Shown piece after piece: positions 28,397-52,690 of a stretch of DNA of 64,000 bases (its first letter is position 1; each line of letters starts with the position of its first letter). Made by a program: the position numbers and the translations under genes. The notes under the pieces are model-generated. The model worked only from the letters and a program-made list of their open reading frames with translations, was not told the origin of the DNA and did not search any database. Origin of the DNA: a virus; the IMG/VR virus record IMGVR_UViG_3300020473_000015; one strand, 5' to 3'.

Positions 28397-29965
28397 ATGT
28401 CACGAAAATATGAGTTTGGCACAAGCCTACATCAAAAAATATTAAATGGAGCAAACATATTAGCAGACAACGTTGCTTCAACTCTCGGCCCGAGAGGCAG
28501 AAATGTTATTTTACATCACCCTGATGAAAGTCCCGTAGTTACAAAAGACGGTGTGACGGTTGCAAAGTTTGTACAACTGGAAGATCCATTTGAAAATGTG
28601 GGCGCACAGATTATCAAACAAGCAGCAGCTAAAACTAATTCTGAGGCTGGAGATGGAACAACAACATCTACTGTTCTTGCTAGAGCTATTCTAGCGCAAG
28701 CGCAAAGATATTTAATGGCTGGCTCCGCTCCAGTGGAACTTAAGCGAGGTATGGATAAAGCAGTAAAAGTTATTGTAGAAAATTTGGAAGATATGGCAAT
28801 GCCAATCAAATCAATGGACGAGGTTGCACACATTGCTACCATTTCTGCTAACAACGATAAGGTTATCGGTAAATTAATTGCAAAAGGTGTTGACTTGGCA
28901 GGTAAAGATGGTGCCATTACAATTGAAGAGGCACGCTCTGTTGACACGACCTTAGATTTGGTAGAAGGCTTTCGTTTTGATTCTGGTTATTTAGCCAGTG
29001 CTTTCGTAACAGATGAAAAAAGAGGTGTCGTTAAATATGATGAGCCAATTATTTTAGTGACGGATGAGAAGATTGATTCTGTTGATGATTTGATGCCAGC
29101 ATTAGAGATCGCAGCCAGAGAAGGAAGACCATTTATTATTGTTGCAGAAAACATTGAAGGACAAGCATTGGCAGCACTTATAATGAATGCGATGCGTGGA
29201 ACAATGCGCGTTGCAGGTATTAAAGCACCGAGATATGGAGAAGAAAGACGCAATATTCTCAAAGACTTAGCCCTTTCAATTGGCGCAACATTTATAACTC
29301 GTCAAAACAATTTAAGATTAAGAGATGTTAAATTAACACATTTTGGTCGAGCCAAAACAATTGAAAGTTCAAAGTCTTTCACTACAATTGTGGGAGGCAA
29401 AGGCGCTATAGATGATGTAGAAAAGAGAATTGATCTTCTAAAAGCGGAGATAAAAGAAACTGACAGCTTGCATGAATGTGAAAAGATTCAAGAAAGAGTT
29501 ACTAGACTTGCAAGCGGCATTGCAGTAATTCGCGTCGGAGCAGCCACTGAAGTAGAAATGATAGAAAAGAGACATAGAATTGAAGATGCTCTGGAGGCAG
29601 TAAACGCGGCACAATTAGAAGGTATAGTTCCTGGTGGTGGTGTTGCATTAATCAGGGCGTCAAGTAAATTAAAAATAGAGTCTGATAATGACGACCAAAA
29701 ACTTGGAGCAAAAATTATTTGTGAAGCAGTTAAAGAGCCACTGAGACAAATGGCTTTAAATGCTGGGTATTCTCCTGATATTCTTATCTCTCTTGTAGAG
29801 AGGGCAAAAGGGAATAAAGGGATTAATTTTAATACTGGTAAATTAGCTGATTTGGTAGAATTAGGAATAATTGATCCAGTTCGGGTAACTAGATGTGCTG
29901 TTCAAAACGCTGCATCTGTGGCCTCGACTTTAATTACAACTAATCATGCCATTATAGAAGGCTGA
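28397..29965 (+). CDS. groEL: chaperonin GroEL
   Basis: TLGPRGRNV, TKDGVTVA, AGDGTTT, GIVPGGG; no GGM tail. Confidence 0.95.
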   Translation: MSRKYEFGTSLHQKILNGANILADNVASTLGPRGRNVILHHPDESPVVTKDGVTVAKFVQLEDPFENVGAQIIKQAAAKTNSEAGDGTTTSTVLARAILAQAQRYLMAGSAPVELKRGMDKAVKVIVENLEDMAMPIKSMDEVAHIATISANNDKVIGKLIAKGVDLAGKDGAITIEEARSVDTTLDLVEGFRFDSGYLASAFVTDEKRGVVKYDEPIILVTDEKIDSVDDLMPALEIAAREGRPFIIVAENIEGQALAALIMNAMRGTMRVAGIKAPRYGEERRNILKDLALSIGATFITRQNNLRLRDVKLTHFGRAKTIESSKSFTTIVGGKGAIDDVEKRIDLLKAEIKETDSLHECEKIQERVTRLASGIAVIRVGAATEVEMIEKRHRIEDALEAVNAAQLEGIVPGGGVALIRASSKLKIESDNDDQKLGAKIICEAVKEPLRQMALNAGYSPDILISLVERAKGNKGINFNTGKLADLVELGIIDPVRVTRCAVQNAASVASTLITTNHAIIEG

Positions 29966-34335: not shown

Positions 34336-34620
34336 GTTTGCGCCGATGGATTTACGATGAGTGTTCAAGCGAACGCACACGCATATTGTAGCCCTCGTAT
34401 CGATAGCGCGGAAAAATATACAGAAGCTGAAGTGGGATACCCATCAGAAGAAGAGCCGTTGCTCCTGAATTGGGCTGAAAACCCTGAAAGACCGACCAAC
34501 ACGGTTTATCCCTATGTACCATCGGATCGGATAACACTTGTGTGTGCCAAACACGGCGGCATCGTCGAAGGGGATTTGCCCAGCGGTATCGCATACTTAG
34601 CCGCGTCCAATTTAAAATGA
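34294..34620 (+). CDS. conserved phage hypothetical protein
   Basis: CADGFTMSVQA..YCSPR..EVGYPS. Confidence 0.7.
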   Translation: MSKNKPIMSKNKPIVCADGFTMSVQANAHAYCSPRIDSAEKYTEAEVGYPSEEEPLLLNWAENPERPTNTVYPYVPSDRITLVCAKHGGIVEGDLPSGIAYLAASNLK

Positions 34621-34793
34621 AAGTGGGCGACCTAGTTCTAGTTGGACCAGCAAATGATGGCACACCTAGTATAATTGTAAGCATGGAGGTGAAAGGCCGC
34701 CGCTTTGCAGGTTCAGTGGTGATCTTTTGTCCTGATATTCAAGATGAGGTGGTGATGGGCAAGCAATGGCTCACAGTCATCTCTTCTGCATAG
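34617..34793 (+). CDS. KOW/SH3-like small protein
   Basis: MKVGDLV..WLTVISSA. Confidence 0.7.
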   Translation: MKVGDLVLVGPANDGTPSIIVSMEVKGRRFAGSVVIFCPDIQDEVVMGKQWLTVISSA

Positions 34794-34820: not shown

Positions 34821-34849
34821 TTGACAATTTCATTCTGGTGTGAGATAAT
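34821..34849 (+). promoter_or_regulatory. early promoter (TGAGATAAT class)
   Basis: TTGACA-17-GATAAT. Confidence 0.8.
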
Positions 34850-34881
34850 TATAAAAGAACGTGGTAGGAGTAAGGAACCAA

Positions 34882-35550
34882 ATGAAACGAGAATTCATCG
34901 AACGAATTAACCAAGTGTTGAGTGTTCATTCAAAACATAGTCTACTTTCTAATTGGGAGGCTGGGTTCTGCGAATCTCTTCTTGACCAAGCAAATCGTGG
35001 TCGCAATTTTTCTGAAAAGCAGTTGTCAGTGCTCAGTCGTTGCGAGGAAAAATGCTCTTCAGAGGGAATTGAAGCCGCTGAGAATTGGGCGAGAGATTAT
35101 GCTGAAAAATATCGTGCAATTGCAATGGTTTGTGCGACCTATTATAACAAATCACAATACTTCCGCAGCTTGTCCTCTCAGGTGCTTCACGACCCTGACT
35201 TCGTACCTACTCAGAATGCGTATAAGAAGATGTGCGAAAACAAGTATGCCAAGAAGGTGTTAGCATCTGTCAACAGTGCGCCTAAATACGCCATAGGCAG
35301 CACAGTGGAGCTTCGTCAGGGCCAAACCCACAACTATATCTATGCACACTTGGCTAATGTGCCATGTCTCGTCCTAGAAACGCTCTCAGAGGTTGTCACT
35401 GCTGCAAAGGGTGGAAAGCAGTATAGAATTCTTCCATATGGGAGAGCAAACACTCTTGTTGTCGAAGAGCGACATATTAAAAACAGCAAACGTAAGAAAA
35501 AGGCTAAAAAGACAGTCTTTTCCGAGACTTCCGAGGATATTCCATTTTAA
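34882..35550 (+). CDS. hypothetical protein with C-terminal SH3-like segment
   Basis: 223-aa ORF behind promoter; PKYAIGSTV motif. Confidence 0.7.
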   Translation: MKREFIERINQVLSVHSKHSLLSNWEAGFCESLLDQANRGRNFSEKQLSVLSRCEEKCSSEGIEAAENWARDYAEKYRAIAMVCATYYNKSQYFRSLSSQVLHDPDFVPTQNAYKKMCENKYAKKVLASVNSAPKYAIGSTVELRQGQTHNYIYAHLANVPCLVLETLSEVVTAAKGGKQYRILPYGRANTLVVEERHIKNSKRKKKAKKTVFSETSEDIPF

Positions 35551-35573
35551 TTCAAAAAAAGTGAAAAAAGTTG

Positions 35574-35602
35574 TTGACATTTCAGAAAAGATGTGAGATA
35601 AT
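35574..35602 (+). promoter_or_regulatory. early promoter (TGAGATAAT class)
   Basis: TTGACA-17-GATAAT. Confidence 0.8.
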
Positions 35603-35649
35603 GTGTCCAAGATAATGAGTTGCCGGGAGGCACAAAGGAGACTTTCAGA

Positions 35650-35898
35650 ATGAGTAGTGATAATGTTGTAGACTTCGCAGACTATCAAAACCGCATTGCA
35701 ATTGCCAACCTTTCAGATGGCGTTGAAGGCTCTTTTGATGATGACCTTTCTCTTACACTATTGAGGATGTATGAGAAGGGATTGATAACAGTGGGATACA
35801 GTGAGGATGGTGAGCTTCTTTTCGAGGCTAGTCCCACCGCAAGCGAAGAAGAATGGAATGATGCGAGAGATGAATTCCTTTCTAATACGCACACTTAG
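35650..35898 (+). CDS. acidic hypothetical protein
   Basis: AAGGAG SD, MSSDNVVDFADY. Confidence 0.65.
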   Translation: MSSDNVVDFADYQNRIAIANLSDGVEGSFDDDLSLTLLRMYEKGLITVGYSEDGELLFEASPTASEEEWNDARDEFLSNTHT

Positions 35899-35928
35899 AA
35901 AAAAAGTGAAAAAAAGAGAAAAAAGTAC

Positions 35929-35957
35929 TTGACTTTTTTCTTTTCGTGTGAGATAAT
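35929..35957 (+). promoter_or_regulatory. early promoter (TGAGATAAT class)
   Basis: TTGACT-17-GATAAT with upstream A-tract. Confidence 0.8.
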
Positions 35958-35998
35958 TATATTCAGAAAGGTCGGAAAACAAAGGAGCTTAATTCGAC

Positions 35999-37081
35999 AT
36001 GGCAATTGACTTTAAAACATTTCTCTCTTGCGCCCCTCATGTAGTGGCAGTCCGAAAACCCATCCTACTTCGTGGTCGTCACGGAGTCGGCAAATCCGAG
36101 GTCGTATATCAAGTGGCCGAGAGCATGGGTCTGCCAGTAGTTGAGCGTCGTGCGTCTCAGATGACCGAAGGCGACCTGTTAGGTATGCCTTCGCCTGAGT
36201 TGGTCGAAGTTAACGGCGAACAGGCTTCTGTTTTTCGGCCTTTCTCTTGGCTCATTCAGTCCTGCACAGAGCCTGTGGTATTGTTCCTCGACGAAGTGGA
36301 CAGGGCTACAACCGAAGTCCGTCAGGGCATTTTCGAGCTAACTGATAGCCGAAAGATTGCTGGATGGACTCTACATGAGGACACCATCGTCATCGCCGCT
36401 GTAAACGGTGGTGAGCACGGTTCACAGTATCAAGTGAACGAGATGGACCCTGCGGAGTTGGACCGTTACACAGTTTTCGATGTTGAGCCTTCTGTTGAAG
36501 ACTGGCTTGATTGGGGTAAAAACAATGTTGCTGGCATTGTTTGGGACTTTATTAATCAGAACCGTCAGCACTTGGAGCATACAGACGATTATGAGCCTAA
36601 CAAGGTTTATCCCTCTCGTCGCTCTTGGAAACGACTGAACGACTGCCTTGATAAAGGTGGGTTGCTTGAAGAGGCTTCACCGCTTCTATTCAACCTTGCA
36701 ACTGGCTTTGTTGGCTTCGAGGCTGCTGTTAGTTTCAACGACTTCGTAAAGAATTACGAAAGAGTTGTTACCGTCGAAGATGTTCTTGTGGACGGCAAGA
36801 TTGACGCAACAAGCACTTTCGACATCAATGAGCATTGCGCCTTGATTGAGAAGATGGATGCAAAAGATACCTTCAAGAAGGCACTTTTGGATAATGAAGT
36901 CCAGCACTTGGCAGACTATGCCGTGACGATTCCGTCAGAGGCATTCATGAAGCTATGGCAACTAATTGGAGCAGGTGACGTGTTGGAAAACACCAAACGA
37001 CTTCACATGGCTACTGCTTCCAACGGTGTTCGCGTTTCTTCCTACATCGTTGAAATTCTCACTGGTAACAAAACTGAATAA
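35999..37081 (+). CDS. MoxR-like AAA+ ATPase
   Basis: GRHGVGKS, LFLDEVDRA, MDPAELDR, SRRSW. Confidence 0.88.
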   Translation: MAIDFKTFLSCAPHVVAVRKPILLRGRHGVGKSEVVYQVAESMGLPVVERRASQMTEGDLLGMPSPELVEVNGEQASVFRPFSWLIQSCTEPVVLFLDEVDRATTEVRQGIFELTDSRKIAGWTLHEDTIVIAAVNGGEHGSQYQVNEMDPAELDRYTVFDVEPSVEDWLDWGKNNVAGIVWDFINQNRQHLEHTDDYEPNKVYPSRRSWKRLNDCLDKGGLLEEASPLLFNLATGFVGFEAAVSFNDFVKNYERVVTVEDVLVDGKIDATSTFDINEHCALIEKMDAKDTFKKALLDNEVQHLADYAVTIPSEAFMKLWQLIGAGDVLENTKRLHMATASNGVRVSSYIVEILTGNKTE

Positions 37082-37087
37082 ACTAAA

Positions 37088-37126
37088 AAGCCCCACCAAA
37101 AAAAGTTGGTGGGGTTTCACTTTTTT
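37088..37126 (+). terminator. rho-independent terminator
   Basis: CCCCACCA-8 nt-TGGTGGGG followed by T-rich tract. Confidence 0.75.
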
Positions 37127-37128
37127 CC

Positions 37129-37157
37129 TTGACAAATCATCACTTCTGTGAGATAAT
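37129..37157 (+). promoter_or_regulatory. early promoter (TGAGATAAT class)
   Basis: TTGACA-17-GATAAT. Confidence 0.8.
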
Positions 37158-37163
37158 GTATAC

Positions 37164-38408
37164 ATGAATGAGACAAATCAAACGTTTGACTTGAATCGGC
37201 ACACTGCACGACTTTTGATGCAGGAGCCGTTCTTCGCCTCTCTCAGCCGTAGAGTTTCTAAGGCTGCGAGTACTGCCATTCCAACTGCTGGTGTACGTGT
37301 CAATCCTGACACTGCTCGATTCGAGATGGTGTACAATCCCAGTTTTTTCGCGACGTTGACTGACGAAGAGCGCACTGCTGTACTCATTCATGAGTTTTAT
37401 CATCTTATCTTTCAGCATGTTACAGACCGCAAACCGTGGACAGGCCAAGATGTGAAACCAAAAGAGGCTCGCCTCTGGAACATCGCCTGTGATTTGGCAA
37501 TTAACTGTCATATCAATAACTTACCTGAAGCAGCATGCGTACCGGGAGTTGGTCCTTTTGCTGAATACTCTCGCTATCTCTCTGCGGAGGCTTACTTCGA
37601 GATGTTGAAGAAGGGTCAAGAGGATAAAGAACAAGAAGATGATGACAAAGGCGAAGAGGGCGAAGGCAACGGTTCTGGTGATGGGTCTGGCAGTGGTTCT
37701 GAAATGCCTGAAGATTCTTTCGACTGTCATGACGGCTGGGGCGAAGGCGAGTCAACTGCAAATGAGATTGCGAAAGAGCGCGTCAAAGAGTATCTGAAGG
37801 AAGCTGCGAAAGACGCACAGAATTCTGGGCAAGGTTGGGGCAGTGTCACTTCTCAGATGCAAAAAGAGATTCTGGAGCGTCTGACCACAAAGGTTGATTG
37901 GAAGAAGGTTCTTCGTTACTTCGTAAAGACTTCTCGTCGTGCAAGTCAAAGAAGCACTGTCAAACGCCTCAACAAGCGTTACGCATACATTCATGCTGGC
38001 AAGAAGGTTACTCGACGTGCCAACATCGCTATCAGCATCGATCAAAGTGGCTCTGTTAGTGACAATATGTTGGCTGCTTTCTTTAGTGAACTCAACAAGT
38101 TAGCTAAACTAGCAGAGTTTACTGTTATACCCTTTGATGATGAAGTGTTCGAGGAAAAGGTGTACGTTTGGAAGAAAGGCGAGAATAGAAAGTGGGAACG
38201 TGTATTGTGCGGTGGCACCAACTTTGATGCACCGACTGAATATGTCAACAAGCATGGCTTTGATGGTCACATCGTTCTGACTGACTTGATGGCACCAAAA
38301 CCAAAGGCTTCAAAATGTCAACGCATGTGGATGACCACAGAATACTACGCTCGACATCCGTACTTTAAAACTAACGAGCGAGTGCTCGCAATTGACGTTG
38401 AAAATTAA
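37164..38408 (+). CDS. DUF2201-type metallopeptidase-like + VWA protein
   Basis: HEFYH, WNIACDLAIN, acidic linker, IDQSGS MIDAS, GGTNF, LTD. Confidence 0.85.
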   Translation: MNETNQTFDLNRHTARLLMQEPFFASLSRRVSKAASTAIPTAGVRVNPDTARFEMVYNPSFFATLTDEERTAVLIHEFYHLIFQHVTDRKPWTGQDVKPKEARLWNIACDLAINCHINNLPEAACVPGVGPFAEYSRYLSAEAYFEMLKKGQEDKEQEDDDKGEEGEGNGSGDGSGSGSEMPEDSFDCHDGWGEGESTANEIAKERVKEYLKEAAKDAQNSGQGWGSVTSQMQKEILERLTTKVDWKKVLRYFVKTSRRASQRSTVKRLNKRYAYIHAGKKVTRRANIAISIDQSGSVSDNMLAAFFSELNKLAKLAEFTVIPFDDEVFEEKVYVWKKGENRKWERVLCGGTNFDAPTEYVNKHGFDGHIVLTDLMAPKPKASKCQRMWMTTEYYARHPYFKTNERVLAIDVEN

Positions 38409-38420
38409 TCAAAAAAATAC

Positions 38421-38449
38421 TTGACTTTCTCGCGAACTTGTGAGATAAT
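38421..38449 (+). promoter_or_regulatory. early promoter (TGAGATAAT class)
   Basis: TTGACT-17-GATAAT. Confidence 0.8.
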
Positions 38450-38482
38450 ATACAAGAACTCGTAGGAAAAGGAGAAAAATAC

Positions 38483-39076
38483 ATGAGTTTTGACGGCACA
38501 GTAAGATGTAGTTGGTGCTACAGCAAAGGCCACAATCGTAATGGGTGCGAAGAAAGAAAGAAGTATATTGCTGATAACCCAGATTCTTATGAAGCAAAAC
38601 GGGAACAAACACGTAAATCTCGAAACCGTCGATGTTCCTACTGTAGTGGAACAGGACACACTCGTCGAACATGCCCTATAATGAAAGAGGACAGAATTAA
38701 AGTTGCAAACGCTTTACAAATCAGTCGTCGTGAGATTAGACACCGCTTGATTGCTGAAGGTCTGGGAATTGGCAGCTTGGTTAGCGTTGTCGATTGGCAC
38801 AACAACCGCGTGGGAATCGTAAAAGAGATTGAGTGGAAAAACATCAACGAGTTGCAGACTTTCAAGTTCACACTCATGAGCGCAACAGATAGAACACGAT
38901 GGTATTGCGTCAATTTAGAGCGAGATAGCCTTAAAGTGCTTGGGCCTGTGTCATCTCACAGTATTGAAAGAGGCATGCCGCAAGAATGGAGAAGCGGCCT
39001 ACTTTACGATGAGAACCACTTCTTTGAAAAGGGTCAACGTCGTAAGCCTTTCCTATGGGGAGAAAACACATGGTAA
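38483..39076 (+). CDS. double CCHC zinc-knuckle protein
   Basis: CSWCYSKGHNRNGC and CSYCSGTGHTRRTC. Confidence 0.75.
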   Translation: MSFDGTVRCSWCYSKGHNRNGCEERKKYIADNPDSYEAKREQTRKSRNRRCSYCSGTGHTRRTCPIMKEDRIKVANALQISRREIRHRLIAEGLGIGSLVSVVDWHNNRVGIVKEIEWKNINELQTFKFTLMSATDRTRWYCVNLERDSLKVLGPVSSHSIERGMPQEWRSGLLYDENHFFEKGQRRKPFLWGENTW

Positions 39077-39396
39077 AAACAATTTATCTTGCAGTCCGGG
39101 AACATAAGCACGGTGTTGATAACTCTGCTCACACAACTGAGACTGGTGCAAAAAAGCAACTTGCGGCATGGGCGCGTGAAACGCTTGACGATTGGCATAT
39201 CGACGGCAAACAGTATTCTTCGTTGGACGTTTGTGGTGAAGAGCATCCAACCTTCGAAGATGACGCTCTCATCGAAGCATGGCCCGAATTGACAGGCGAA
39301 ACTGAGTTTCTGCGGGTGGAGATGCTGCATCTGCATCACGACGAGCCGAGCGAGAAAGAAAATTGGACTGCTGACACTTCCCATATTGGAGCTTAA
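39070..39396 (+). CDS. hypothetical protein
   Basis: start taken at MVKTIY. Confidence 0.6.
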   Translation: MVKTIYLAVREHKHGVDNSAHTTETGAKKQLAAWARETLDDWHIDGKQYSSLDVCGEEHPTFEDDALIEAWPELTGETEFLRVEMLHLHHDEPSEKENWTADTSHIGA

Positions 39397-39397
39397 A

Positions 39398-39652
39398 ATG
39401 GCATATCCTGAAAACAATGAAAAGAACAGACTTGAACTAGCATCTAAAATTCTTAGCGGCTGGAGCCGTGAGGACTTGGAAGTATACGTCACCACTCAGT
39501 TTGTCGATGATTATCGGCATGCACCGGACATCTTTGACGAAACATGGGACGACTTCAAAGATTCATTCGAGTGGTCACAGGAACTGCGCGAAAGTGTGAA
39601 AGAAAATTGCCCTAATCCCGGTTGTCATTGCGGCGCATGCGAGGAAGATTAG
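39398..39652 (+). CDS. hypothetical protein with C-terminal Cys cluster
   Basis: CPNPGCHCGAC. Confidence 0.6.
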   Translation: MAYPENNEKNRLELASKILSGWSREDLEVYVTTQFVDDYRHAPDIFDETWDDFKDSFEWSQELRESVKENCPNPGCHCGACEED

Positions 39653-39734
39653 TGGAATTATTGGGCTTATTGATACCAGTGGCAGCAATTGTGCTGTTCA
39701 TCTGGAGAGAAGAATCATCAAAAAAATAGGAGAA

Positions 39735-39899
39735 ATGATGACTAGAGAAGAAGAATTAAGACAACTTGCTGAATTTGTTAAGAAAAATGGGGTAACAAAG
39801 TTGCCAAAGGATGAGCGTGGACCGGACTTTGTAGCTATCAGTGCATGGGGCAAGCCACGTAGAAAAAAGGCGAAAAAGGCAAAAAAAGCTAAGAAATAA
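39735..39899 (+). CDS. small basic protein
   Basis: AGGAG SD; ends RRKKAKKAKKAKK (read manually). Confidence 0.6.
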   Translation: MMTREEELRQLAEFVKKNGVTKLPKDERGPDFVAISAWGKPRRKKAKKAKKAKK

Positions 39900-39900
39900 C

Positions 39901-39929
39901 TTGACAGATGCAGTGAGGTTTGATATACT
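39901..39929 (+). promoter_or_regulatory. sigma70-type promoter
   Basis: TTGACA-17-TATACT. Confidence 0.7.
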
Positions 39930-39935
39930 GTACAA

Positions 39936-40091
39936 ATGAGAGTTGGGGATTTAGTAAAATATATAACAGGCTGCACTGCCATAGTCTTATGGGTGAATCA
40001 TGCTGGCGGCACAGTAAAAGTTGTCAATGACAACGGAAGGATAGCTTGGCTAGTCACTTCTGACTGTGAGGTAATCAGTGCAGCAAGGTAA
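39936..40091 (+). CDS. KOW/SH3-like small protein
   Basis: MRVGDLVKY..CEVISAAR (51 aa, read manually). Confidence 0.7.
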   Translation: MRVGDLVKYITGCTAIVLWVNHAGGTVKVVNDNGRIAWLVTSDCEVISAAR

Positions 40092-40147
40092 ATTAATGGC
40101 TTTGGTCATCTTGGCATGGATGGTGTTATTCCTAATAGCGGAGGTAC

Positions 40148-40354
40148 GTGACAAATGAAACTCATGTGACAATAAAAATATCGAAAAGAAAAGCGGCCAA
40201 GTGGATATATGATCACATAAACAAACCTTCAATGACTCTCTTGAAGGCAACAAATAAAAGGAGTCTGGTAAAGTGGCGCGACGAGGACAGCGGCCCGTTT
40301 TTCTTTTGTATTCAAGATGAAAAAAAAGTTAAACGGCGTGAAAAAAACTCTTGA
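40148..40354 (+). CDS. hypothetical protein
   Basis: GGAGG SD; stop TGA lies inside the next TTGACA. Confidence 0.55.
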   Translation: MTNETHVTIKISKRKAAKWIYDHINKPSMTLLKATNKRSLVKWRDEDSGPFFFCIQDEKKVKRREKNS

Positions 40355-40379
40355 CAAACCTTGTTTTATATGAGATAAT
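40351..40379 (+). promoter_or_regulatory. early promoter (TGAGATAAT class)
   Basis: TTGACA-17-GATAAT. Confidence 0.8.
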
Positions 40380-40413
40380 ACTTATAGAAACAATCGAGAA
40401 AGGATTCAAGAAC

Positions 40414-40854
40414 ATGACAAACATTCCTACTTTCCCTGCTCCTTCTGCTTCTGTTGTTGAGATGGCGACCGGAAAACGCGCTCGCCTTCGTGCCGCTCGT
40501 CAGTGGATTAATGAGGCTCGCGCTACGTTGGCCGATGGTTCTGTTGTTGCTCCTTCGACTCGCTTGGCTATGAATGTCATGAAGTCAATTGTCGATGGTA
40601 TGCCAGCCGTCGATGTTGCCGTACAAGATGGCGAGTGGCAGTACGCTTTTCGCGTGAATGCTGCTATCGAAGCTGACAAGCTGCGCTCTGAGCGTTTTCA
40701 GGCTTTCATGGCAGAGGACCAGCCTTCAGAGGTTGGAATAGGTGTCTGTGACAGTTGTGGCCTTGTTGGTGCATCGGTGCGTAATCACTATGCACCAGAC
40801 GGAATGGGCTTTCCTACTCTTGTTTTTCAAAATTGCATCGATGGGTGCAAATAA
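40414..40854 (+). CDS. hypothetical protein with C-terminal Zn finger
   Basis: CDSC..CIDGC. Confidence 0.65.
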   Translation: MTNIPTFPAPSASVVEMATGKRARLRAARQWINEARATLADGSVVAPSTRLAMNVMKSIVDGMPAVDVAVQDGEWQYAFRVNAAIEADKLRSERFQAFMAEDQPSEVGIGVCDSCGLVGASVRNHYAPDGMGFPTLVFQNCIDGCK

Positions 40855-40869
40855 ATTTCAAAAAAGTAC

Positions 40870-40898
40870 TTGACAAATCTCATTTAATGTGAGATAAT
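40870..40898 (+). promoter_or_regulatory. early promoter (TGAGATAAT class)
   Basis: TTGACA-17-GATAAT. Confidence 0.8.
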
Positions 40899-41011
40899 AC
40901 ATTCAGAAACAATCGAAAAAAAAGGAAATAAAATGATTGTAATTGCTCTATCTATGTTCGCCGTCGCTTCAATTCTAACCAGCGTATTTGTCGCTCCAAA
41001 GGGGTGCTAAT

Positions 41012-41509
41012 ATGAAAGCAGACGATATTTTAATGAAAAAGTGGTGTTTTGGGACTGGTCGAGGTCGAGTGAAGGCTCGTGAAGAGGCAGTGCAGGTAAA
41101 CGGAGAACTCCAAACCTACCGAACCTACCCCAAGTACAGGACGATTATCTTCAAGGTGGAGAAGGCTACCAAGAAGGGTAAACAATGGACTGTCGAGGGA
41201 AAGCAGTATTCTTCTTTGAACGGTAAGCCAAAGACAACTAAACTTGTGTTGAACGAAAAGAATGGTCTGCTCTATGTTCCAAACCAGAAACGCCCGTTTC
41301 TCAAGATTCAGAATCCGGGCCTATTGACAGAAGATGGCTTACCACCTGTTGGAAGTCTCATTACTGTCAACAAGAAGCATGCCATTGTTACGGCAGTGGG
41401 GCGCAATGAGTTGACTGTGTTTGTCAACAACAAAATTCAGACGATCACTTGTCGTCCCGGTACAATCAAGTGGCATTCTGACAAAATTCTAGCAAATGCG
41501 GTGAAATAA
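41012..41509 (+). CDS. hypothetical basic protein with C-terminal KOW-like segment
   Basis: PPVGSLITV..AIVTAV. Confidence 0.6.
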   Translation: MKADDILMKKWCFGTGRGRVKAREEAVQVNGELQTYRTYPKYRTIIFKVEKATKKGKQWTVEGKQYSSLNGKPKTTKLVLNEKNGLLYVPNQKRPFLKIQNPGLLTEDGLPPVGSLITVNKKHAIVTAVGRNELTVFVNNKIQTITCRPGTIKWHSDKILANAVK

Positions 41510-41510
41510 T

Positions 41511-41876
41511 ATGTTTGATTTAGCTTACGACGACTACTCTTTTGATACTGACGAAGAAATGTTCTTTGAGAGTGATGAAGATAAAGTACACGAGATGATT
41601 GAAAAATTCATTTCAGAGGAAACAAAGAAAAAAGAGTCTGTTCGCATCCATCAAAGTGGACGTGGCAGACCAAGAAAACACTTCACCAAGACAGTGACAT
41701 TCGTTGAGATGGAGGCTTCAGGATGGCTTAAAAAGGCTCCCAGAGGCCGCCCAAAGAAAGGCGAGGTAAGAGTCGAGGTAATGGTTCCAATTGGCGTAGA
41801 GATTGCTCCAGAGCGTTTCTACACGTATGAAAATGGTGTTTTGACGGAGACTTGGACAAGCCATGAACAACGCTAA
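41511..41876 (+). CDS. protein with acidic N-terminus and two AT-hook motifs
   Basis: GRGRPRK and PRGRPKK. Confidence 0.65.
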   Translation: MFDLAYDDYSFDTDEEMFFESDEDKVHEMIEKFISEETKKKESVRIHQSGRGRPRKHFTKTVTFVEMEASGWLKKAPRGRPKKGEVRVEVMVPIGVEIAPERFYTYENGVLTETWTSHEQR

Positions 41877-42348
41877 AAGCTATAATACGGGAAAGCAGAA
41901 CGAAGCAGACTCATGGACAACGATGCGTCAGCATGGTTTTGTTCGCCCAACGTCGCAGCAAAGAAAGAATCTTGTCAAAGCCTACGCACAAGTAGGAAAA
42001 GAAATACGAGCGAAAGGCTTTGATTTGATTAAAGAATCCGATACAGAGACAATTAATAATCCAGACCAATTGGCAGAAGCAGTCGAAAACATTACACTTT
42101 TTGAACTGAAAACTGCTGGTAGGGAAAGGAAGTCGCCTGTAGAGGAGAATTGGTCTGGATTGGGATTCACCTTGACAGGCGCAGAGAAGCACAACGCAGA
42201 AGTGCTGAAAGATAAGTTTAGGTTTATCTTTCTCAATTTGAAGAATGGTGCTTTGCGTGAATGTAGGCTGGATGAATTCTTTTCTTCTGGTGTAGCGAAC
42301 ACTTACCCAACATGGTCAGTTTTTATCACAAAAGGCTTGACAAGCTGA
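41863..42348 (+). CDS. PD-(D/E)xK nuclease-like protein
   Basis: GFDLI..FELKT..FTLT..E. Confidence 0.55.
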   Translation: MNNAKSYNTGKQNEADSWTTMRQHGFVRPTSQQRKNLVKAYAQVGKEIRAKGFDLIKESDTETINNPDQLAEAVENITLFELKTAGRERKSPVEENWSGLGFTLTGAEKHNAEVLKDKFRFIFLNLKNGALRECRLDEFFSSGVANTYPTWSVFITKGLTS

Positions 42349-42365
42349 ATTCCACATGGTATAAT
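42337..42365 (+). promoter_or_regulatory. sigma70-type promoter
   Basis: TTGACA-17-TATAAT with TG extension. Confidence 0.75.
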
Positions 42366-42366
42366 A

Positions 42367-42570
42367 ATGACACCAACAAACGATTCGGAGAACAGTATGG
42401 TTGATAAGATTATTCGTTACGAGAATGGAGAAATGAACACCACAGAAGTGGTTGAATTCTTTCAGGAACTAATTAACAATGGTTTAGCTTGGAGCCTTCA
42501 AGGACACTATGGTCGAACAGCCTCTCAGTTGATCGATCTTGGCCTTTGCGCTCACTCGGAGGAAAAATAA
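42367..42570 (+). CDS. conserved phage hypothetical protein
   Basis: FFQELINNGLAWSLQGHYGRTA. Confidence 0.7.
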   Translation: MTPTNDSENSMVDKIIRYENGEMNTTEVVEFFQELINNGLAWSLQGHYGRTASQLIDLGLCAHSEEK

Positions 42571-42938
42571 TGGGTTATCGTTCAGAAGTTGCTTTAGCAG
42601 TAAGTAAAGAATTAATGCCACGTTTCTTGACAGTCTTTGCAAAATGTCCAGAGGCTCAGGTGATGGTCTTCAAGGATCATGATAAAATGGATGAGGATTA
42701 TGATGGTGAAGGCACATTTTTTGTTTATTGGAGTGGCATCAAGTGGTACGAGAGCTTTCCAGAGGTAAGCGCTATTGAGAAATTTCTTGCAGAGTGCGAA
42801 CTTGATGACTTTGAGGATTTAGCAAATTCATATGAACATTATCGTTTTGTACGTTTAGGCGAAGAGCACGACGACGTTGAAATAATGGGCGACCTGTGCT
42901 CTTGGGACATTAACTTTAGAAGGGAATTGACGTTTTGA
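42570..42938 (+). CDS. conserved phage hypothetical protein
   Basis: MGYRSEV..KWYE..FVRLGEE. Confidence 0.7.
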   Translation: MGYRSEVALAVSKELMPRFLTVFAKCPEAQVMVFKDHDKMDEDYDGEGTFFVYWSGIKWYESFPEVSAIEKFLAECELDDFEDLANSYEHYRFVRLGEEHDDVEIMGDLCSWDINFRRELTF

Positions 42939-43028
42939 ACAGTGAAGAAATAGGCTATTTTGTCTTGTCGTTTGTATTAATTGCTGTAATTACAATGGTA
43001 CCGACATTCTTTGAGAAAAGAGAATAGA

Positions 43029-43226
43029 ATGAAAATTGGCGACCTAGTAGAACTATCCAGCAAAGGAAGGGGGATTCTTTGGTGTAGGCGATACAGAGAT
43101 AGAACGGGAATTGTAGTGGATGTTGCAGCACAGAACCAAAGGCTTCACACAGTTAAAGTTGTCTTCATGAACGCTGGAAGTGTATGGATTCATCGTAGTT
43201 ACGTCAAAATGGTTGCTAAAGGGTAA
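43029..43226 (+). CDS. KOW/SH3-like small protein
   Basis: MKIGDLV..GIVVDV. Confidence 0.7.
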   Translation: MKIGDLVELSSKGRGILWCRRYRDRTGIVVDVAAQNQRLHTVKVVFMNAGSVWIHRSYVKMVAKG

Positions 43227-43236
43227 AATGAAGTTT

Positions 43237-43267
43237 TTTCATGTAGAAACTATATATCTACATGAAA
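43237..43267. repeat. perfect 11-bp inverted repeat overlapping a start codon
   Basis: TTTCATGTAGA-9 nt-TCTACATGAAA. Confidence 0.85.
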
Positions 43268-43429
43268 TTAAACGAGATTGTTAGATACAGAGAAAGCAAA
43301 GAATATGGACATCTTACAGGAAGGGTCAAAACAATTCATGGTCGAAAATGGCTCACAGTTGAATGGTCAGATGGTGTCAACGTTCGCGAGCACGTCGATG
43401 ACTTGATGTTCGAGGGCGAGAAAGGGTAA
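43262..43429 (+). CDS. KOW/SH3-like small protein
   Basis: MKLNEIVRY..GRV..TVEWSDG..HVDDL (55 aa, read manually). Confidence 0.6.
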   Translation: MKLNEIVRYRESKEYGHLTGRVKTIHGRKWLTVEWSDGVNVREHVDDLMFEGEKG

Positions 43430-43471
43430 AACTCGTATCGGAAATTTTTTTCCCTTTTATTCAAAATATAC

Positions 43472-43500
43472 TTGACAAACAACACATTTTATGAGATAAT
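43472..43500 (+). promoter_or_regulatory. early promoter (TGAGATAAT class)
   Basis: TTGACA-17-GATAAT. Confidence 0.8.
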
Positions 43501-43532
43501 GTATACATCAACAACTGGAAAAGGATTGAAAA

Positions 43533-43739
43533 ATGACCAGAAAAGACTTTAAAATGATTGCAGACATCCTCAAATTGCACACCACTAGCCATACTGCACA
43601 AGCATTGGCCTTAGACTTCGCACAGGCATTTCAAAAGACAAATCCTCGTTTTGATAAGAAACGGTTTCTTGATGCTTGTGGTCTTGAATATGTACGTTTA
43701 GGAAATGGTCGAGAGCTTCACATCATCGAAGGCAAGTAA
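43533..43739 (+). CDS. conserved phage hypothetical protein
   Basis: MTRKDFKMIA..NPRFDKKRFLDAC. Confidence 0.75.
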   Translation: MTRKDFKMIADILKLHTTSHTAQALALDFAQAFQKTNPRFDKKRFLDACGLEYVRLGNGRELHIIEGK

Positions 43740-43842
43740 ACCATGCAATATGCGGATTGGGACGCAATATATGCCCTTCTATGGTGGGCAGCAATAGTTA
43801 TACCATTGGGCTTTCTAATTGAATTCATAGAGGAGAAATACT

Positions 43843-44028
43843 TTGACTAAACACCCATTGGAAGCAGGAGCCTTAGTGCAGCGCAGTTTGTATCGTGGAT
43901 ATTATCAAGTGCTTCAAAAATATCGGCACGGAATTGACCACACCGGAGGTTTAAGGCTCGATCTCCTTTGTTTATCCACAGGCAAAATAGTCAGGGCTAT
44001 ACGTCCCAGCCGTGTAAAAGTGGTATAA
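43843..44028 (+). CDS. KOW/SH3-like small protein
   Basis: LEAGALV..RPSRVKVV. Confidence 0.55.
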   Translation: MTKHPLEAGALVQRSLYRGYYQVLQKYRHGIDHTGGLRLDLLCLSTGKIVRAIRPSRVKVV

Positions 44029-44029
44029 A

Positions 44030-44215
44030 ATGAAGGTTGGTGACTTAGTGCGCGTAACAGGTCACGCTCGATATAAAGGACAAATTGGCATCGTAACTCA
44101 TATATTGCCGGGAGCATCGGGAACATATGAATTGTATTGGGTACACACACATAAAGATACATACCCATTTTTAAAAACAGACTTGGAGATAGTTGTTAAT
44201 GAGAATATTGATTAG
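44030..44215 (+). CDS. KOW/SH3-like small protein
   Basis: MKVGDLVRV..GQIGIV..DLEIV. Confidence 0.75.
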   Translation: MKVGDLVRVTGHARYKGQIGIVTHILPGASGTYELYWVHTHKDTYPFLKTDLEIVVNENID

Positions 44216-44426
44216 TCTAGCACTGTTGATGCTTACAGGATGTGCCATAACCGTTCAGGCACCAAAAGAAGAGTTGAGATTCTTTCATGATGAAAACAGA
44301 GGAAATGTTAGGTTTGTTTGTTGGAAAACAAATGATGTAGGATGGCAATGCAATCGCACAGACCTCAATTGGCCAAAAGAATGGTCGAGGGCAAGCAAAA
44401 CAATAAACCCAAAAAATAGCAAATAA
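44199..44426 (+). CDS. small lipoprotein
   Basis: LTGC lipobox. Confidence 0.6.
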   Translation: MRILISLALLMLTGCAITVQAPKEELRFFHDENRGNVRFVCWKTNDVGWQCNRTDLNWPKEWSRASKTINPKNSK

Positions 44427-44427
44427 C

Positions 44428-44601
44428 ATGAAAAGAGGCGATTTAGTAAAATATACCGGAAGAGATGATACTGTTCATTATGGGGTTGTGATTGAGGTGG
44501 ATGAACGAACTTATGGTCCAGTGTTAGCGATACTTCAGGGCGAAAACTATAGCATGTGGTTTCAACGGCGCAATTTGGAGCTAGTCAATGCAAGTAGGTG
44601 A
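44428..44601 (+). CDS. KOW/SH3-like cassette protein
   Basis: MKRGDLVKY..LELVNASR (read manually). Confidence 0.75.
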   Translation: MKRGDLVKYTGRDDTVHYGVVIEVDERTYGPVLAILQGENYSMWFQRRNLELVNASR

Positions 44602-44749
44602 TTTGGTTAGGTATAAACAAGGCTCGTTGGACATGGTGGGCATCATCACAGGACAGAGATGTCATGGCGATTATTGGGTGCAGTTTGTTGACGGCACCAA
44701 ATCCCTTTGTCGCCATCGGTGCTTGGAGGTAATCAATGCAAGTAGGTGA
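44588..44749 (+). CDS. KOW/SH3-like cassette protein
   Basis: MQVGDLVRY..CLEVINASR (read manually). Confidence 0.75.
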   Translation: MQVGDLVRYKQGSLDMVGIITGQRCHGDYWVQFVDGTKSLCRHRCLEVINASR

Positions 44750-44900
44750 TTTAGTGAAATACTCTTACCACAAAAAAGTGGGTACAGGCATAATTGTGGG
44801 CTTTGATGAAGACGATGACCCAATAGTCAGAGACAATCGTAGCGGTGTTATCGCCGCATCATGGCGAAAAAAAGTAGAAATTATTAATAAAAGTTCTTGA
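44736..44900 (+). CDS. KOW/SH3-like cassette protein
   Basis: MQVGDLVKY..VEIINKSS; stop inside next TTGACA. Confidence 0.75.
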   Translation: MQVGDLVKYSYHKKVGTGIIVGFDEDDDPIVRDNRSGVIAASWRKKVEIINKSS

Positions 44901-44925
44901 CAATTACTTCAATTCATGAGATAAT
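44897..44925 (+). promoter_or_regulatory. early promoter (TGAGATAAT class)
   Basis: TTGACA-17-GATAAT. Confidence 0.8.
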
Positions 44926-44955
44926 ACCTATAGAAACAGTCGAGAAAGGCAAAAC

Positions 44956-45189
44956 ATGCAAGCAACACCAATTCAAAATGCTCTCACAGTGCGTAACGCA
45001 GAAACTTTGCCCGATGGCGCAAAAGTGGTCACAATCGATGTAGCAGACTACATGGATTTTATCCGCACACCGCATGCCATTGAATACGATGGCGAAGTTT
45101 ATGGTCGCACTGGTTGGAATAGCGATAAATTCGTCGCATATTACAGAACAGACAGAAAAGTTGCGAGGGCAATCAGTGCAAGTCGGTGA
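44956..45189 (+). CDS. hypothetical protein ending in the cassette junction
   Basis: YGRTGWNSDKFVAYYR; ends AISASR. Confidence 0.7.
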   Translation: MQATPIQNALTVRNAETLPDGAKVVTIDVADYMDFIRTPHAIEYDGEVYGRTGWNSDKFVAYYRTDRKVARAISASR

Positions 45190-45352
45190 TTTGGTACGGA
45201 TTAAAGGCGCTAGTATGGTTCACCTTGTTAAGCGGGTCGAATCTGTCGCTAATTTCTATGAGAGCCTGCCACCTACAACGTGGGTGATCTTGGATGGTCA
45301 ACCTGTGCCGTACAAAGCGAGCAAAGTGGAGGTAATCAGTGCAAGTCGGTGA
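45176..45352 (+). CDS. KOW/SH3-like cassette protein
   Basis: (M)QVGDLVRI..VEVISASR. Confidence 0.75.
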   Translation: MQVGDLVRIKGASMVHLVKRVESVANFYESLPPTTWVILDGQPVPYKASKVEVISASR

Positions 45353-45503
45353 TTTGGTGAAGGGTAAACTATGGGAAGAGTTGGGCATAGTAGTCTGTGT
45401 ACCTCCAATGCCTTCTATGATAGAAGTTTGCTGGACTGGAGAAAAGCCCAGAAGACAAAAGCATCTTTCGGGGGAACTGGAGGTAATCAGTGAAAGTCGG
45501 TGA
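45339..45503 (+). CDS. KOW/SH3-like cassette protein
   Basis: (M)QVGDLVKG..LEVISESR (read manually). Confidence 0.75.
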   Translation: MQVGDLVKGKLWEELGIVVCVPPMPSMIEVCWTGEKPRRQKHLSGELEVISESR

Positions 45504-45702
45504 TTTAGTACAATTTGATTATGTCAATGGTCACACTAGCGAAGTCAACAACAAGATGGGATTGTACTTAGGTCCAAAGCCTTTGAAGCGCGAGGACGGA
45601 AAAATAATTAACAACTTCATGATTCAGCTTCTTGGAGAAACAACCCCAAGATTGTGTGATGGTTCAATGATGCGTTGGTTGAGGGTAGTAGAATGCAAGT
45701 AG
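45490..45702 (+). CDS. KOW/SH3-like cassette protein
   Basis: (M)KVGDLVQF..LRVVECK. Confidence 0.75.
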   Translation: MKVGDLVQFDYVNGHTSEVNNKMGLYLGPKPLKREDGKIINNFMIQLLGETTPRLCDGSMMRWLRVVECK

Positions 45703-45908
45703 GTGATTTAGTAAAGATTAAACGCGCCACTAATGGCGTACCACGTGGCACGTCGGCACTTATTATTAAGGTTCAGACTGCCAAAGACTTGAACAATGAG
45801 CCATTCCCCTTGTATATGGTGTCAATGAGCGTGAAGCCTTGGCGCACTGGACCGTATGAACGACAATATTTAGAAAAGGATTTGGAGGTCATCAGTGCAA
45901 GTAGGTGA
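45693..45908 (+). CDS. KOW/SH3-like cassette protein
   Basis: MQVGDLVKI..LEVISASR. Confidence 0.75.
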   Translation: MQVGDLVKIKRATNGVPRGTSALIIKVQTAKDLNNEPFPLYMVSMSVKPWRTGPYERQYLEKDLEVISASR

Positions 45909-46059
45909 TTTAGTAAAACACACATTGATTGAACGCCTTGGAATTGTGTTGAGGACACCAGAAGAAACAGGCAATGGTGATCATGAGGTATATTACAGTT
46001 ATGGCATGAAAGGGTATTGGAATAAACGTTGGATGAAATTAGTTCAAGAAAGTACTTGA
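45895..46059 (+). CDS. KOW/SH3-like cassette protein
   Basis: (M)QVGDLVKH..MKLVQEST; stop inside next TTGACA (read manually). Confidence 0.75.
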   Translation: MQVGDLVKHTLIERLGIVLRTPEETGNGDHEVYYSYGMKGYWNKRWMKLVQEST

Positions 46060-46084
46060 CAAATTATAATTTCTATGAGATAAT
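46056..46084 (+). promoter_or_regulatory. early promoter (TGAGATAAT class)
   Basis: TTGACA-17-GATAAT. Confidence 0.8.
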
Positions 46085-46696
46085 GTATATAGAAAGGTTG
46101 GAGGAACATGTACGACTGGAAAAAAGAAATGGATGCGAATTACAAACGTGTTAAAGCCAATTGGTGGCAAACAGGTAATCGCACGTGTCAAACTGCGGTA
46201 AGCGCAAGTTTTCAACTAGGGAAAGGAAAAGATTCGGAGAGCACAAAAGAATATAATGAAAAGTAATTGGAAACAATTGTTATATTCAGTGCTGTTAGTA
46301 ATAGCAGCATTTCTCTTTGCTCATTGGTATCTCGTAACAGTAGAAGGTTTATAGAATGGAATATTTCGTACAAAGAATTAATCATGATCACTGGGTAAAC
46401 ATCTGTGGTCCATTTGGCTCAGAAGGTGAAGCTCGCATGTACGCTAGGAGTTGTACAAACAATTCTGTTTATGGTAAGCGAATTCGTATTGCTACAGGAT
46501 GTGGACGTGTTGTTGATATTCTGTAATTATCTTTAGAGGTTGGGAGGTTAGCACAATCAATGTATTTTTAAAGGTACATAAATAAGCTAGGTGTAGAAAG
46601 TGGGATTAGGGTTAGTAGTATAAAGTCTATATATACAACCCTGTCAAGTGAAAACATTCTACACTTAGCTGTGCATTAATTCTACACATATATTTG

Positions 46697-46725
46697 TTGA
46701 CAGTCGCTAGGTGATATGTTATAAT
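46697..46725 (+). promoter_or_regulatory. sigma70-type promoter
   Basis: TTGACA-17-TATAAT. Confidence 0.65.
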
Positions 46726-47309
46726 GGAGAAAAAATGTTTCAAACACTAGGTACAATAACGCACGATATGTTGTTGTTAATATTACCTTTTGGTAGCGGT
46801 TACTTGTGCGATGACGAGGGTGAGCCATGCGAAGACTCACTAAAGGTTACGCTAATGTTACAATCAATATTTGTATTGACTAACCCGCATGACGCAAAAA
46901 AGGTAGAAATTAATTAGTAATGATTACAACCACTTAGTTTAACTTTCTCTAGGTGGAGATAGAAAAAGATCGGAGAGTAATGAATAATAATAAAGAAACT
47001 ATCGAATTGTTGACAGTACTAAGCGTATTAGTTGCTACAATGATAATAGGAGCATTCGACTTATGTGGCATGATATAAGACATCTATACAGGTACGCTTT
47101 ACATACTGCCTATGGTCAGTAGCGTAGCGCAAGTTGTGTTAGGAATATCTATGGGTATAGTAAGCTGGACATGGCTTAAAGGCTTAGGAGAGAACACAGA
47201 TGAATAAGGAACTGATAAAGAAGTTAGCCTCACAGATAGAATCAACGATAGTAGGTATGGACATTGCGCCAACAGTAGTGACAGTGGTAAAAAAAGTAAA
47301 GAAAAAGGC

Positions 47310-47338
47310 TTGACAAATGAAATAGCTTGTGTTATAAT
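47310..47338 (+). promoter_or_regulatory. sigma70-type promoter with no obvious ORF directly downstream
   Basis: TTGACA-17-TATAAT with upstream A-tracts. Confidence 0.65.
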
Positions 47339-47508
47339 AAAAGCATGAAGTAAGAATAAAGACACCACCACTACCCCACCGGATATACCCGAATGTATGT
47401 CCTAGTAGGAAAATATGCGCGATTTGGGACGACTATATACACATGCATAACGCAGCCCAATTTTCCAGAATTAAAAAAATCCCCACAATAATTTTTGAGA
47501 CTTTACTA

Positions 47509-47518
47509 ACTACTTATA
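47509..47518 (+). promoter_or_regulatory. candidate phage late-promoter motif
   Basis: ACTACTTATA at the start of the leader-gene block. Confidence 0.45.
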
Positions 47519-47555
47519 ATACAGCCGATTAAGGCATATTAAAGGAGAGCACACT

Positions 47556-47636
47556 ATGAAAACACTACACAGACTAGTTAACTGGCTTAACCCGCTACAT
47601 TGCTGTTGCGAATGTGGCTGTTGTAAATGTAAATAA
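47556..47636 (+). CDS. 26-aa Cys-rich micro-protein
   Basis: AAAGGAG SD; MKTLHRLVNWLNPLHCCCECGCCKCK. Confidence 0.6.
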   Translation: MKTLHRLVNWLNPLHCCCECGCCKCK

Positions 47637-52483: not shown

Positions 52484-52690
52484 ATGCCTTCACCACGCTT
52501 TAACGTTGGCGATTTAGTCCAGTTTGATTCCTTTGGTCATACCATAGGCATTGTAACTGATGTAAAAAACTCTCCTAGCTTTGATCCCCCTGAAAAAATA
52601 GCTGATGTATTGGTATATTGGTCTGATGGCATAGAATTCTGGTGTCTGGACTTTTGTTTAGTGATTGTTTCGAAATATAAAACTAATTAA
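52484..52690 (+). CDS. KOW/SH3-like small protein
   Basis: FNVGDLV..IGIV..VYWSDG. Confidence 0.65.
   Translation: MPSPRFNVGDLVQFDSFGHTIGIVTDVKNSPSFDPPEKIADVLVYWSDGIEFWCLDFCLVIVSKYKTN

Follow-up and report, generated by a model that had tools for sequence, protein, structure and literature searches.

In the present study, a chain of small overlapping genes was analysed at positions 44428-46059 of a 64,000-nucleotide (nt) stretch of viral DNA (IMG/VR record IMGVR_UViG_3300020473_000015; the whole stretch is hereafter called the window), which comes from a large uncultured aquatic phage of a clade with genomes of ~190-205 kb. The genes are linked by a junction of approximately 30 nt that is read in two frames. 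This chain, first noticed in an original prediction made from the letters alone, was confirmed, and the interpretation then attached to it, that cassettes are gained, lost or shuffled by recombination at the junction, was partly supported. Gain, loss and swap of single cassettes, with the joints inside the junction, were observed between related phages. Herein, we propose a hyperplastic early mini-protein array, in which the dual-coding junction is conserved by its double duty and the cassettes are exchanged inside it by homologous recombination, and we consider this explanation probable. First, the hyperplastic early region would encode many mini-proteins (50-71 amino acids, aa) of a single uncatalogued, five-stranded SH3/KOW-like family. 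Second, the geometry of the junction would give termination-reinitiation coupling along the chain behind one sigma70-type promoter. Third, as every boundary and every related phage shows the same 20-30 nt, crossovers by homologous recombination could take place in register, and whole cassettes might be deleted, inserted or exchanged while the stop codon, the Shine-Dalgarno (SD) sequence and the start codon remain intact. In addition, the promoter modules might serve as a second type of boundary.

The 20-nt core of the junction, ATGCAAGTMGGTGATTTRGT, was found in seven copies (at most 3 mismatches), all on the + strand, at 44588, 44736, 45176, 45339, 45490, 45693 and 45895. Only 0.02 copies were expected by chance and none of 100 shuffled sequences gave seven, so that the seven predicted junctions are real; they connect eight family genes and one unrelated gene. 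At each junction, the upstream open reading frame (ORF) ends with ...LEVI[SN][AE]SR* and the next ORF starts with M[QK]VGDLV. The upstream stop codon TGA arises from GG-TGA-T in the Gly4-Asp5 codons (GGT GAT) of the next gene, and the SD sequence GGAGG lies 6 nt ahead of the start codon (ATG or GTG), within the L-E-V-I codons for the last strand of the upstream protein. The dual role assigned to the junction was thus seen in the ORFs. The overlap of 14 nt, predicted for most junctions, was found at six of the seven; at 45693 the overlap is 10 nt because an extra spacer base shifts the upstream frame, which then stops at TAG (...RVVECK*). As also predicted, both chains end with a TGA inside the TTGACA of the following promoter (genes 44736-44900 and 45895-46059), and the two promoters, of the type TTGACA-17-GATAAT, were located. 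The junctions and these two promoter modules are the only repeats within 44400-46100; the cassette cores are non-repeating, in agreement with their claimed dissimilarity at the DNA level. The stop/start overlap combined with an SD inside the upstream coding region is the arrangement of coupled gene pairs, and the 14-nt overlap was found in 80-87 of 124 family starts. Such a geometry supplies any plugged-in cassette with a ribosome-binding site and an overlapping stop/start, as had been proposed, and termination-reinitiation, models of which have been reviewed (PMC12548453), probably couples translation along the chains. Outside the window, the 31-nt junction pattern is present in 16 other viral contigs, with chains of up to 13 genes.

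The overlapping frames could also be read in another way, namely that each chain encodes one repeat protein, like beads on a string, through programmed frameshifting at each junction, with the overlap serving recoding. Fused two-domain proteins (P0042, P0065 and P0124) and single polypeptides of 3-5 related domains (P0050, P0122 and P0145) are known. However, no slippery heptamer and no stimulatory RNA structure were found at the junctions (no significant fold, z -0.9 to +1.1 compared with shuffles), an SD at the canonical distance from a start codon is present in every junction, the frameshift required would be +1/-2, and the overlap geometry varies between junctions. This reading is therefore regarded as highly improbable. 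Complementarity of 5 bp (AATCA…TGATT) flanks the start codon in most junctions (e.g. 45483-45503) without significant folding, and probably just follows from the Ile and Gly-Asp codons.

Cassette exchange between close relatives was revealed by a scan of metagenomes in which the non-family gene 44956, independent of the junction, served as the anchor and which returned 16 loci. The anchor was 95-96% identical in seven loci, and at this identity at least five different cassettes follow it, the window counted. The homology blocks of the window with loci L038-L044 end at 45195-45197. Locus L041 is approximately 95% identical to the window at the nucleotide level over 44896-45195 and 45896-47564, and the blocks shared by the two are 44896-45195, 45171-45361, 45478-45715 and 45896-47564. 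The six real ends of these blocks all fall between -12 and +22 nt relative to a junction start (P about 3e-5 if random). Cassette 45176 is 86% nucleotide-identical in L041 and bounded junction to junction, cassette 45490 is 94% nucleotide-identical, and the 45895 protein shows 98% aa identity; 45339 and 45693 are missing, and at least six other cassettes are carried. Moreover, L041 joins 45490 straight to 45895, where the sequence is that of window 45490 up to the shared TGCAAGTAGGTGATTT and that of 45895 beyond, placing the crossover within about 20 shared nt. The test set beforehand in the original prediction, that cassette number and order should differ between close relatives with breakpoints in the junction, was therefore passed by L041 and by the loci anchored on 44956. 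In locus L039 (2187-2930, + strand), cassette 44736 has two partial look-alikes (72% and 80% identical), one on either side of a pair of other cassettes, which may reflect intra-cassette recombination or duplication.

Shuffling was also seen in a more distant relative, G002, a complete genome of 190.6 kb with core genes 76-95% identical to those of the window, in which synteny is kept around the array and content and order differ. The orthologue of 44736 (87-90% identical) ends with ...VEVINASR* and is coupled to a different cassette, whereas in an order unlike that of the window the 45490 orthologue (69%) is followed by the 43029 orthologue, with an ATGA overlap to the following cassette. The 44428 orthologue, 61% identical, lies 9 kb from the other orthologues. 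The 44956 orthologue ends with ...KVAFSS* in a TTGACA promoter, the arrangement found at 46056..46084 in the window, and is directly followed by the 46108 orthologue, so that this site lacks cassettes 45176-45895. Across contigs, 26 orthologous cassette pairs gave 16 testable comparisons, and the neighbour was conserved in none of them. The DNA homology of orthologous cassettes starts and stops within the junctions.

To describe why the junction is conserved, 124 family starts were compared, 87 of them coupled through the 14-nt overlap and 37 uncoupled. The Gly4 codon is GGT in all coupled starts, where it is obligatory because it is needed for the TGA, and GGC, GGA or GGG in 17 of the 37 uncoupled starts. 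Codon 3 ends in A or C, so that the upstream frame reads Arg, in 83/87 coupled compared with 29/37 uncoupled starts (p 0.006), and GTG start codons were observed in 48/87 and 5/37, respectively (p 2e-5). Locus L044 provides a natural control: here, a frame change makes the anchor gene stop at TAA just ahead of the ATG, without coupling, and GTT GGC stands at the next start. The free sites, i.e. the third positions of the LEVI codons for Val and Ile, and the Asp5, Leu6 and Val7 codons, are variable, with no difference between coupled and uncoupled starts. Thus, the ~30 nt are kept near constant by two reading frames and the SD. Measured against the refuting condition named in the original prediction, junction DNA shows no conservation beyond the needs of coding and the SD, as free synonymous sites vary as they do at uncoupled starts. 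In other words, the junction as a homology block stands as far as gain, loss and swap with joints inside it are concerned, and shows no sign of being kept for recombination.

Several points weigh against the proposed exchange by homologous recombination. First, the relatives are all metagenome contigs from short reads, and at the junction, a repeat 20-35 nt long, short-read assemblers might switch between co-occurring strains and create the shuffling as an artefact. We consider this extremely unlikely. Usual reads and final k-mers are longer than the repeat, and independent samples show the same arrangements (L038/L040 and L042/L043), which speaks against chimeric assemblies. Many of the relatives' cassettes are without a counterpart in the window, so that the content differs whatever the linkage, and the junction-dependent codon choice co-varies with the coupling state. 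Second, breakpoints at gene boundaries are also expected from selection after random illegitimate recombination, and the grafting of the junction tail onto gene 44956, which must have arisen without left-side homology, cannot itself be a homologous event. The corresponding alternative, in which sequence-independent recombination makes random joints, selection keeps those at gene boundaries and the junction is mechanistically idle, is the explanation that prevails for most mosaic boundaries in phages (PMC3029335). However, the joints are perfectly in register, with no indels and no duplicated junction pieces, and the crossover interval is always the shared 20-30 nt; with overlaps of 14 nt, a random joint that spares stop, SD and start is very improbable unless made by homology. 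We therefore judge this model unlikely at the present locus. Third, the junction geometry is not uniform, and overlaps of 14, 10, 4 and 1 nt all exist. Fourth, the identity at free sites was 0.563 within and 0.542 between genomes (p about 0.1), so that concerted evolution was not significant there, and as no surplus conservation was found at these sites, nothing indicates that the junction is maintained for the sake of recombination, as opposed to being simply exploited by it.

The last point bears directly on a further alternative, according to which the junction itself is selected as a site of cassette exchange, a coding counterpart of promoter-early stem-loop (PeSL) or attC sites, and a pan-library of mini-binders is reshuffled in co-infection, possibly via excised circles. 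Cassette turnover is indeed very fast relative to the divergence of the flanks, as the variety of neighbours behind the anchor indicates, the cassette types number thousands, and non-family genes have been recruited to the junction. In addition, the residue at position 2 (K or Q, read as E or A in the upstream tail) shows greater homogeneity within than between genomes (0.65 vs 0.46, p 0.002), which homogenisation of the junction predicts and which is the sole hint of it, although this could stem from lineage-specific expansions. However, synonymous sites that are free, both within the junction and next to it, are no more conserved than at uncoupled starts, and no dedicated recombinase sites were seen. 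We regard this alternative as doubtful, though less so than those above, and only tentatively entertain its fullest form, a universal adaptor kept for the purpose, through which a large marine phage clade trades single mini-binder genes in register from a pan-library of thousands. If true, any inserted gene, unrelated ones included, would be expressed at once by translational coupling, and the junction would be a translation-level counterpart of integrons and PeSLs, allowing rapid re-tooling of early host-takeover or counter-defence functions. For the favoured explanation, homologous exchange within a junction conserved by double duty, the agent of the crossovers is probably the phage's own UvsX-like recombinase, given that a UvsX-like protein 73-84% identical to that of the window is encoded in four other phage contigs bearing such arrays (84% in G002).

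The closest known analogue is PeSL-mediated modular shuffling in the hyperplastic regions of T4-type phages (PMC2839356, Arbiol et al. 2010; PMC4122927, Comeau et al. 2014). In both systems, a short motif repeated between small, non-essential early ORFs is the crossover point for insertion, deletion or replacement of single genes, the moved gene retains working expression signals, and the hyperplastic region lies inside a conserved genome. In the present study, close relatives likewise differed by the insertion, deletion or replacement of single small ORFs, with the repeated motif at the bounds. However, PeSLs are intergenic, about 100 bp long, and consist of a promoter and a terminator, i.e. 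transcription signals, whereas the present junction is ~30 nt of coding sequence read in two frames that gives translation signals (SD, start and stop), has no stem-loop, and links paralogues of one family. The promoters at 44897 and 46056 are more PeSL-like, yet the PeSL combination of a sigma70-like early promoter with a stem-loop terminator was not found, as no hairpin precedes either of them. Short conserved boundary sequences have also been proposed for modular exchange in lambdoid and other phages, although they are usually not identifiable at the joints (PMC3029335). The two models agree in that homologous recombination at short shared gene-boundary sequences yields mosaics; here, such sequences can be pointed out at every joint, and dual coding accounts for them. 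With integrons, the array shares ordered, small, promoterless mobile ORFs behind an upstream promoter, with content differing between close relatives. In contrast to integrons, the exchange appears to be general homologous recombination, and the cassettes are paralogous and mutually overlapping. No attC-like hairpin site was found at the cassette ends, where the 5-bp AATCA/TGATT alone occurs and folds no better than shuffles, and no IntI-type integrase was detected among the large window ORFs scanned, a scan of the window that was not exhaustive. Finally, like other coupled overlapping genes (PMC12548453), the cassettes are co-oriented, with a stop/start overlap and the SD inside the upstream gene, but the overlap is 14 nt rather than 1 or 4 nt and is repeated serially over up to 13 genes with the same sequence at each step.

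Most phage mosaic joints show no homology, and the frequency of viable recombinants is therefore a long-standing question. At the present locus, the crossover sequence is explicit at every joint and an ordinary constraint, two reading frames and a ribosome-binding site, explains it, so that recombination, expression and gene integrity are all solved by the same 30 nt. The locus offers a natural and readily testable model of short-homology cassette exchange, and synthetic gene arrays with stoichiometric coupling could be designed on the principle of the junction. In addition, the cassettes belong to a very large, uncatalogued family of early phage mini-proteins with a constant SH3/KOW-like scaffold, and these proteins are good candidates as binders directed at the host.

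The predicted assignment of the family to small SH3/KOW-like beta-barrels was upheld. An AlphaFold2 model based on an alignment of 97 sequences is a five-stranded barrel with a predicted local distance difference test score (pLDDT) of 94.8, in which the three residues past the last strand fall outside the fold. In Foldseek searches, the model matched KOW domains of Spt5 and NusG, HspQ, NdhS and PWWP with template modelling (TM) scores of 0.75-0.85, and also uncharacterised viral proteins; profile matches to sequences in the PDB were weak (uL24, NusG, Spt5 and PWWP). The modelled fold thus agrees with an SH3-like/KOW-like domain, a strongly bent, antiparallel five-stranded barrel of ~50-60 residues. 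The likeness to the KOW/SH3 barrels of NusG/Spt5, uL24, HspQ, NdhS and PWWP consists of the five strands and an N-terminal G-D-x-V strand, whereas the present proteins are stand-alone domains of 50-70 aa, occur in many copies per phage and have no functional residues in common with them. Pfam KOW (PF00467) was not reached at its gathering score (best 18.4 bits, cut-off 22.3), and any Pfam match at E <= 0.01 was obtained for two of the 97 family members; gene 44030 is the sole window member with a KOW match, which is weak (E 0.002) and under the cut-off. The family is not covered in PHROGs or Pfam, and an Atlas search returned unnamed clusters only, together with SH3-like families at sub-threshold scores. 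Among 1.84 billion cluster representatives, a search with the family profile (E <= 1e-3) gave a family size of at least 7,232 representatives, and complete relatives carry 15-18 copies per genome. Sixteen members had been counted in the window; 13 are detected by the family hidden Markov model (HMM), and three more (30642, 43262 and 43843) are weaker candidates.

The ratio of nonsynonymous to synonymous substitution rates (dN/dS) in the cassette cores was 0.07-0.21 between orthologues, which indicates purifying selection, and the mini-genes are therefore real, individually conserved genes. Cassette 44736, for example, has 41 orthologue clusters at 64-94% identity. The idea of a diversifying set of sequences did not hold, as the cassettes are stable orthologue groups and not locally hypervariable; diversification is found at the level of array content only. 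Recent tandem duplication was rejected as the origin of the array, since the cores are ~24% identical and DNA repeats are absent; one intra-genome cassette pair at 71% identity was observed in G002. The cassette proteins are probably early, host-directed binders with a constant scaffold and variable surfaces, and the early-promoter context is the basis on which binder, anti-defence or takeover roles might be suggested. In P0042, P0065 and P0124, two family domains are fused in one ORF exactly at the junction (P0042: …LEVVKQVKVGDLV…), which would be the expected product of a frame-restoring change in the junction. P0050, P0122, P0145, P0043 and P0044 contain 3-14 tandem related domains per polypeptide (MKFKVGDKV…LELV…EEEKV linker), and the same barrel thus also occurs as a true repeat protein.

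As had been noticed, a non-KOW gene, 44956, is joined through the same junction. This gene has no match to the family HMM, its predicted fold differs, and a fold search with its model gave no convincing match. Its last 6-7 residues (...RAISASR*) have a pLDDT of 42, and the junction tail is confined to a close clade, more distant orthologues ending otherwise; the tail is a grafted junction end. On gene 39936, a decayed junction, GAGGTAATCAGTGCAGCAAGGTAA, starts the non-family ORF 40078-40158 (+), which encodes a hydrophobic peptide of 26 aa, MQQGKLMALVILAWMVLFLIAEVRDK, from the GTG of that junction, and this micro-peptide appears to be plugged into the same adaptor. The head of chain A, gene 44428, has an uncoupled start (ATG AAA AGA GGC GAT). 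The coordinates of these features are listed in the table.

Table. Coordinates (window positions) of the mini-genes, junctions, promoter modules and recombinase gene.
Feature	Position	Strand	Remarks
Family gene, 57 aa, head of chain A	44428..44601	+	HMM E 1e-14
Family gene, 53 aa	44588..44749	+	HMM E 7e-18
Family gene, 54 aa, last of chain A	44736..44900	+	Ends ...VEIINKSS*
Non-family gene, 77 aa, beta-rich	44956..45189	+	Ends ...ARAISASR* in junction 3
Family gene, 58 aa	45176..45352	+	ORF, HMM
Family gene, 54 aa	45339..45503	+	AlphaFold2-modelled sequence, pLDDT 94.8
Family gene, 70 aa	45490..45702	+	Ends ...RVVECK* at TAG
Family gene, 71 aa	45693..45908	+	ORF
Family gene, 54 aa, last of chain B	45895..46059	+	Ends ...QEST*
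Isolated family gene	34617..34793	+	HMM
Isolated family gene	39936..40091	+	Ends ...CEVISAAR*; HMM
Isolated family gene, 65 aa	43029..43226	+	HMM
Isolated family gene, 61 aa	44030..44215	+	HMM
Distant family member, outside early island	52484..52690	+	HMM; start approximate
Junction 1	44575..44607	+	SD, next start, upstream TGA; 14-nt overlap
Junction 2	44723..44755	+	14-nt overlap; matches the originally predicted consensus exactly
Junction 3	45163..45195	+	14-nt overlap; SD degenerate, GAGGG
Junction 4	45326..45358	+	14-nt overlap
Junction 5	45477..45509	+	14-nt overlap; type MKVGD / SESR*
Junction 6	45680..45712	+	Variant: 10-nt overlap, upstream TAG in other frame
Junction 7	45882..45914	+	14-nt overlap
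Sigma70-type promoter TTGACA-17-GATAAT with TGA-GATAAT	44897..44925	+	Boundary of module, end of chain A
Second promoter module TTGACA-17-GATAAT	46056..46084	+	Closes chain B
UvsX-like recombinase	3556-4659	+	phrog_97, E 9e-53

The array lies inside an island at 34.8-46.1 kb that contains ten TTGACW-17-GATAAT promoters (34821-46084, +), compared with 0.06 expected, and TGA precedes GATAAT in all ten. These promoters are of host type and therefore presumably early. Homology with the relatives begins 8-11 nt upstream of the promoter at 44897, and three genes of the window and G002 end with a TGA in the -35 box (…AGT[TA]CTTGACA / …TCTTCTTGACA); the TTGACA promoter is thus a second standard module boundary beside the junction. 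Among cultured phages, neither a nucleotide search of INPHARED with the array region nor a tblastn search of INPHARED with one cassette gave a match, the array region is absent from G001, the nearest relative record, and a literature search on the junction and family motifs found nothing. In bacterial and archaeal genomes, the junction pattern was found in four contigs of metagenome-assembled genomes only, of unrelated taxa, which are probably binned phage DNA and therefore allow no inference on the host. The window also encodes a DnaE-type polymerase, ribonucleotide reductase, a DnaB-like helicase, GroEL, an endolysin and three tRNAs besides the UvsX-like recombinase. Between the family genes 44030 and 44428, an ORF of 77 aa (44193-44426, +) carries a lipoprotein-type signal (…LLMLTGC…), and the phage-encoded GroEL-like chaperonin lies at window positions 28397-29965 (+; phrog_5725, E 3e-137).

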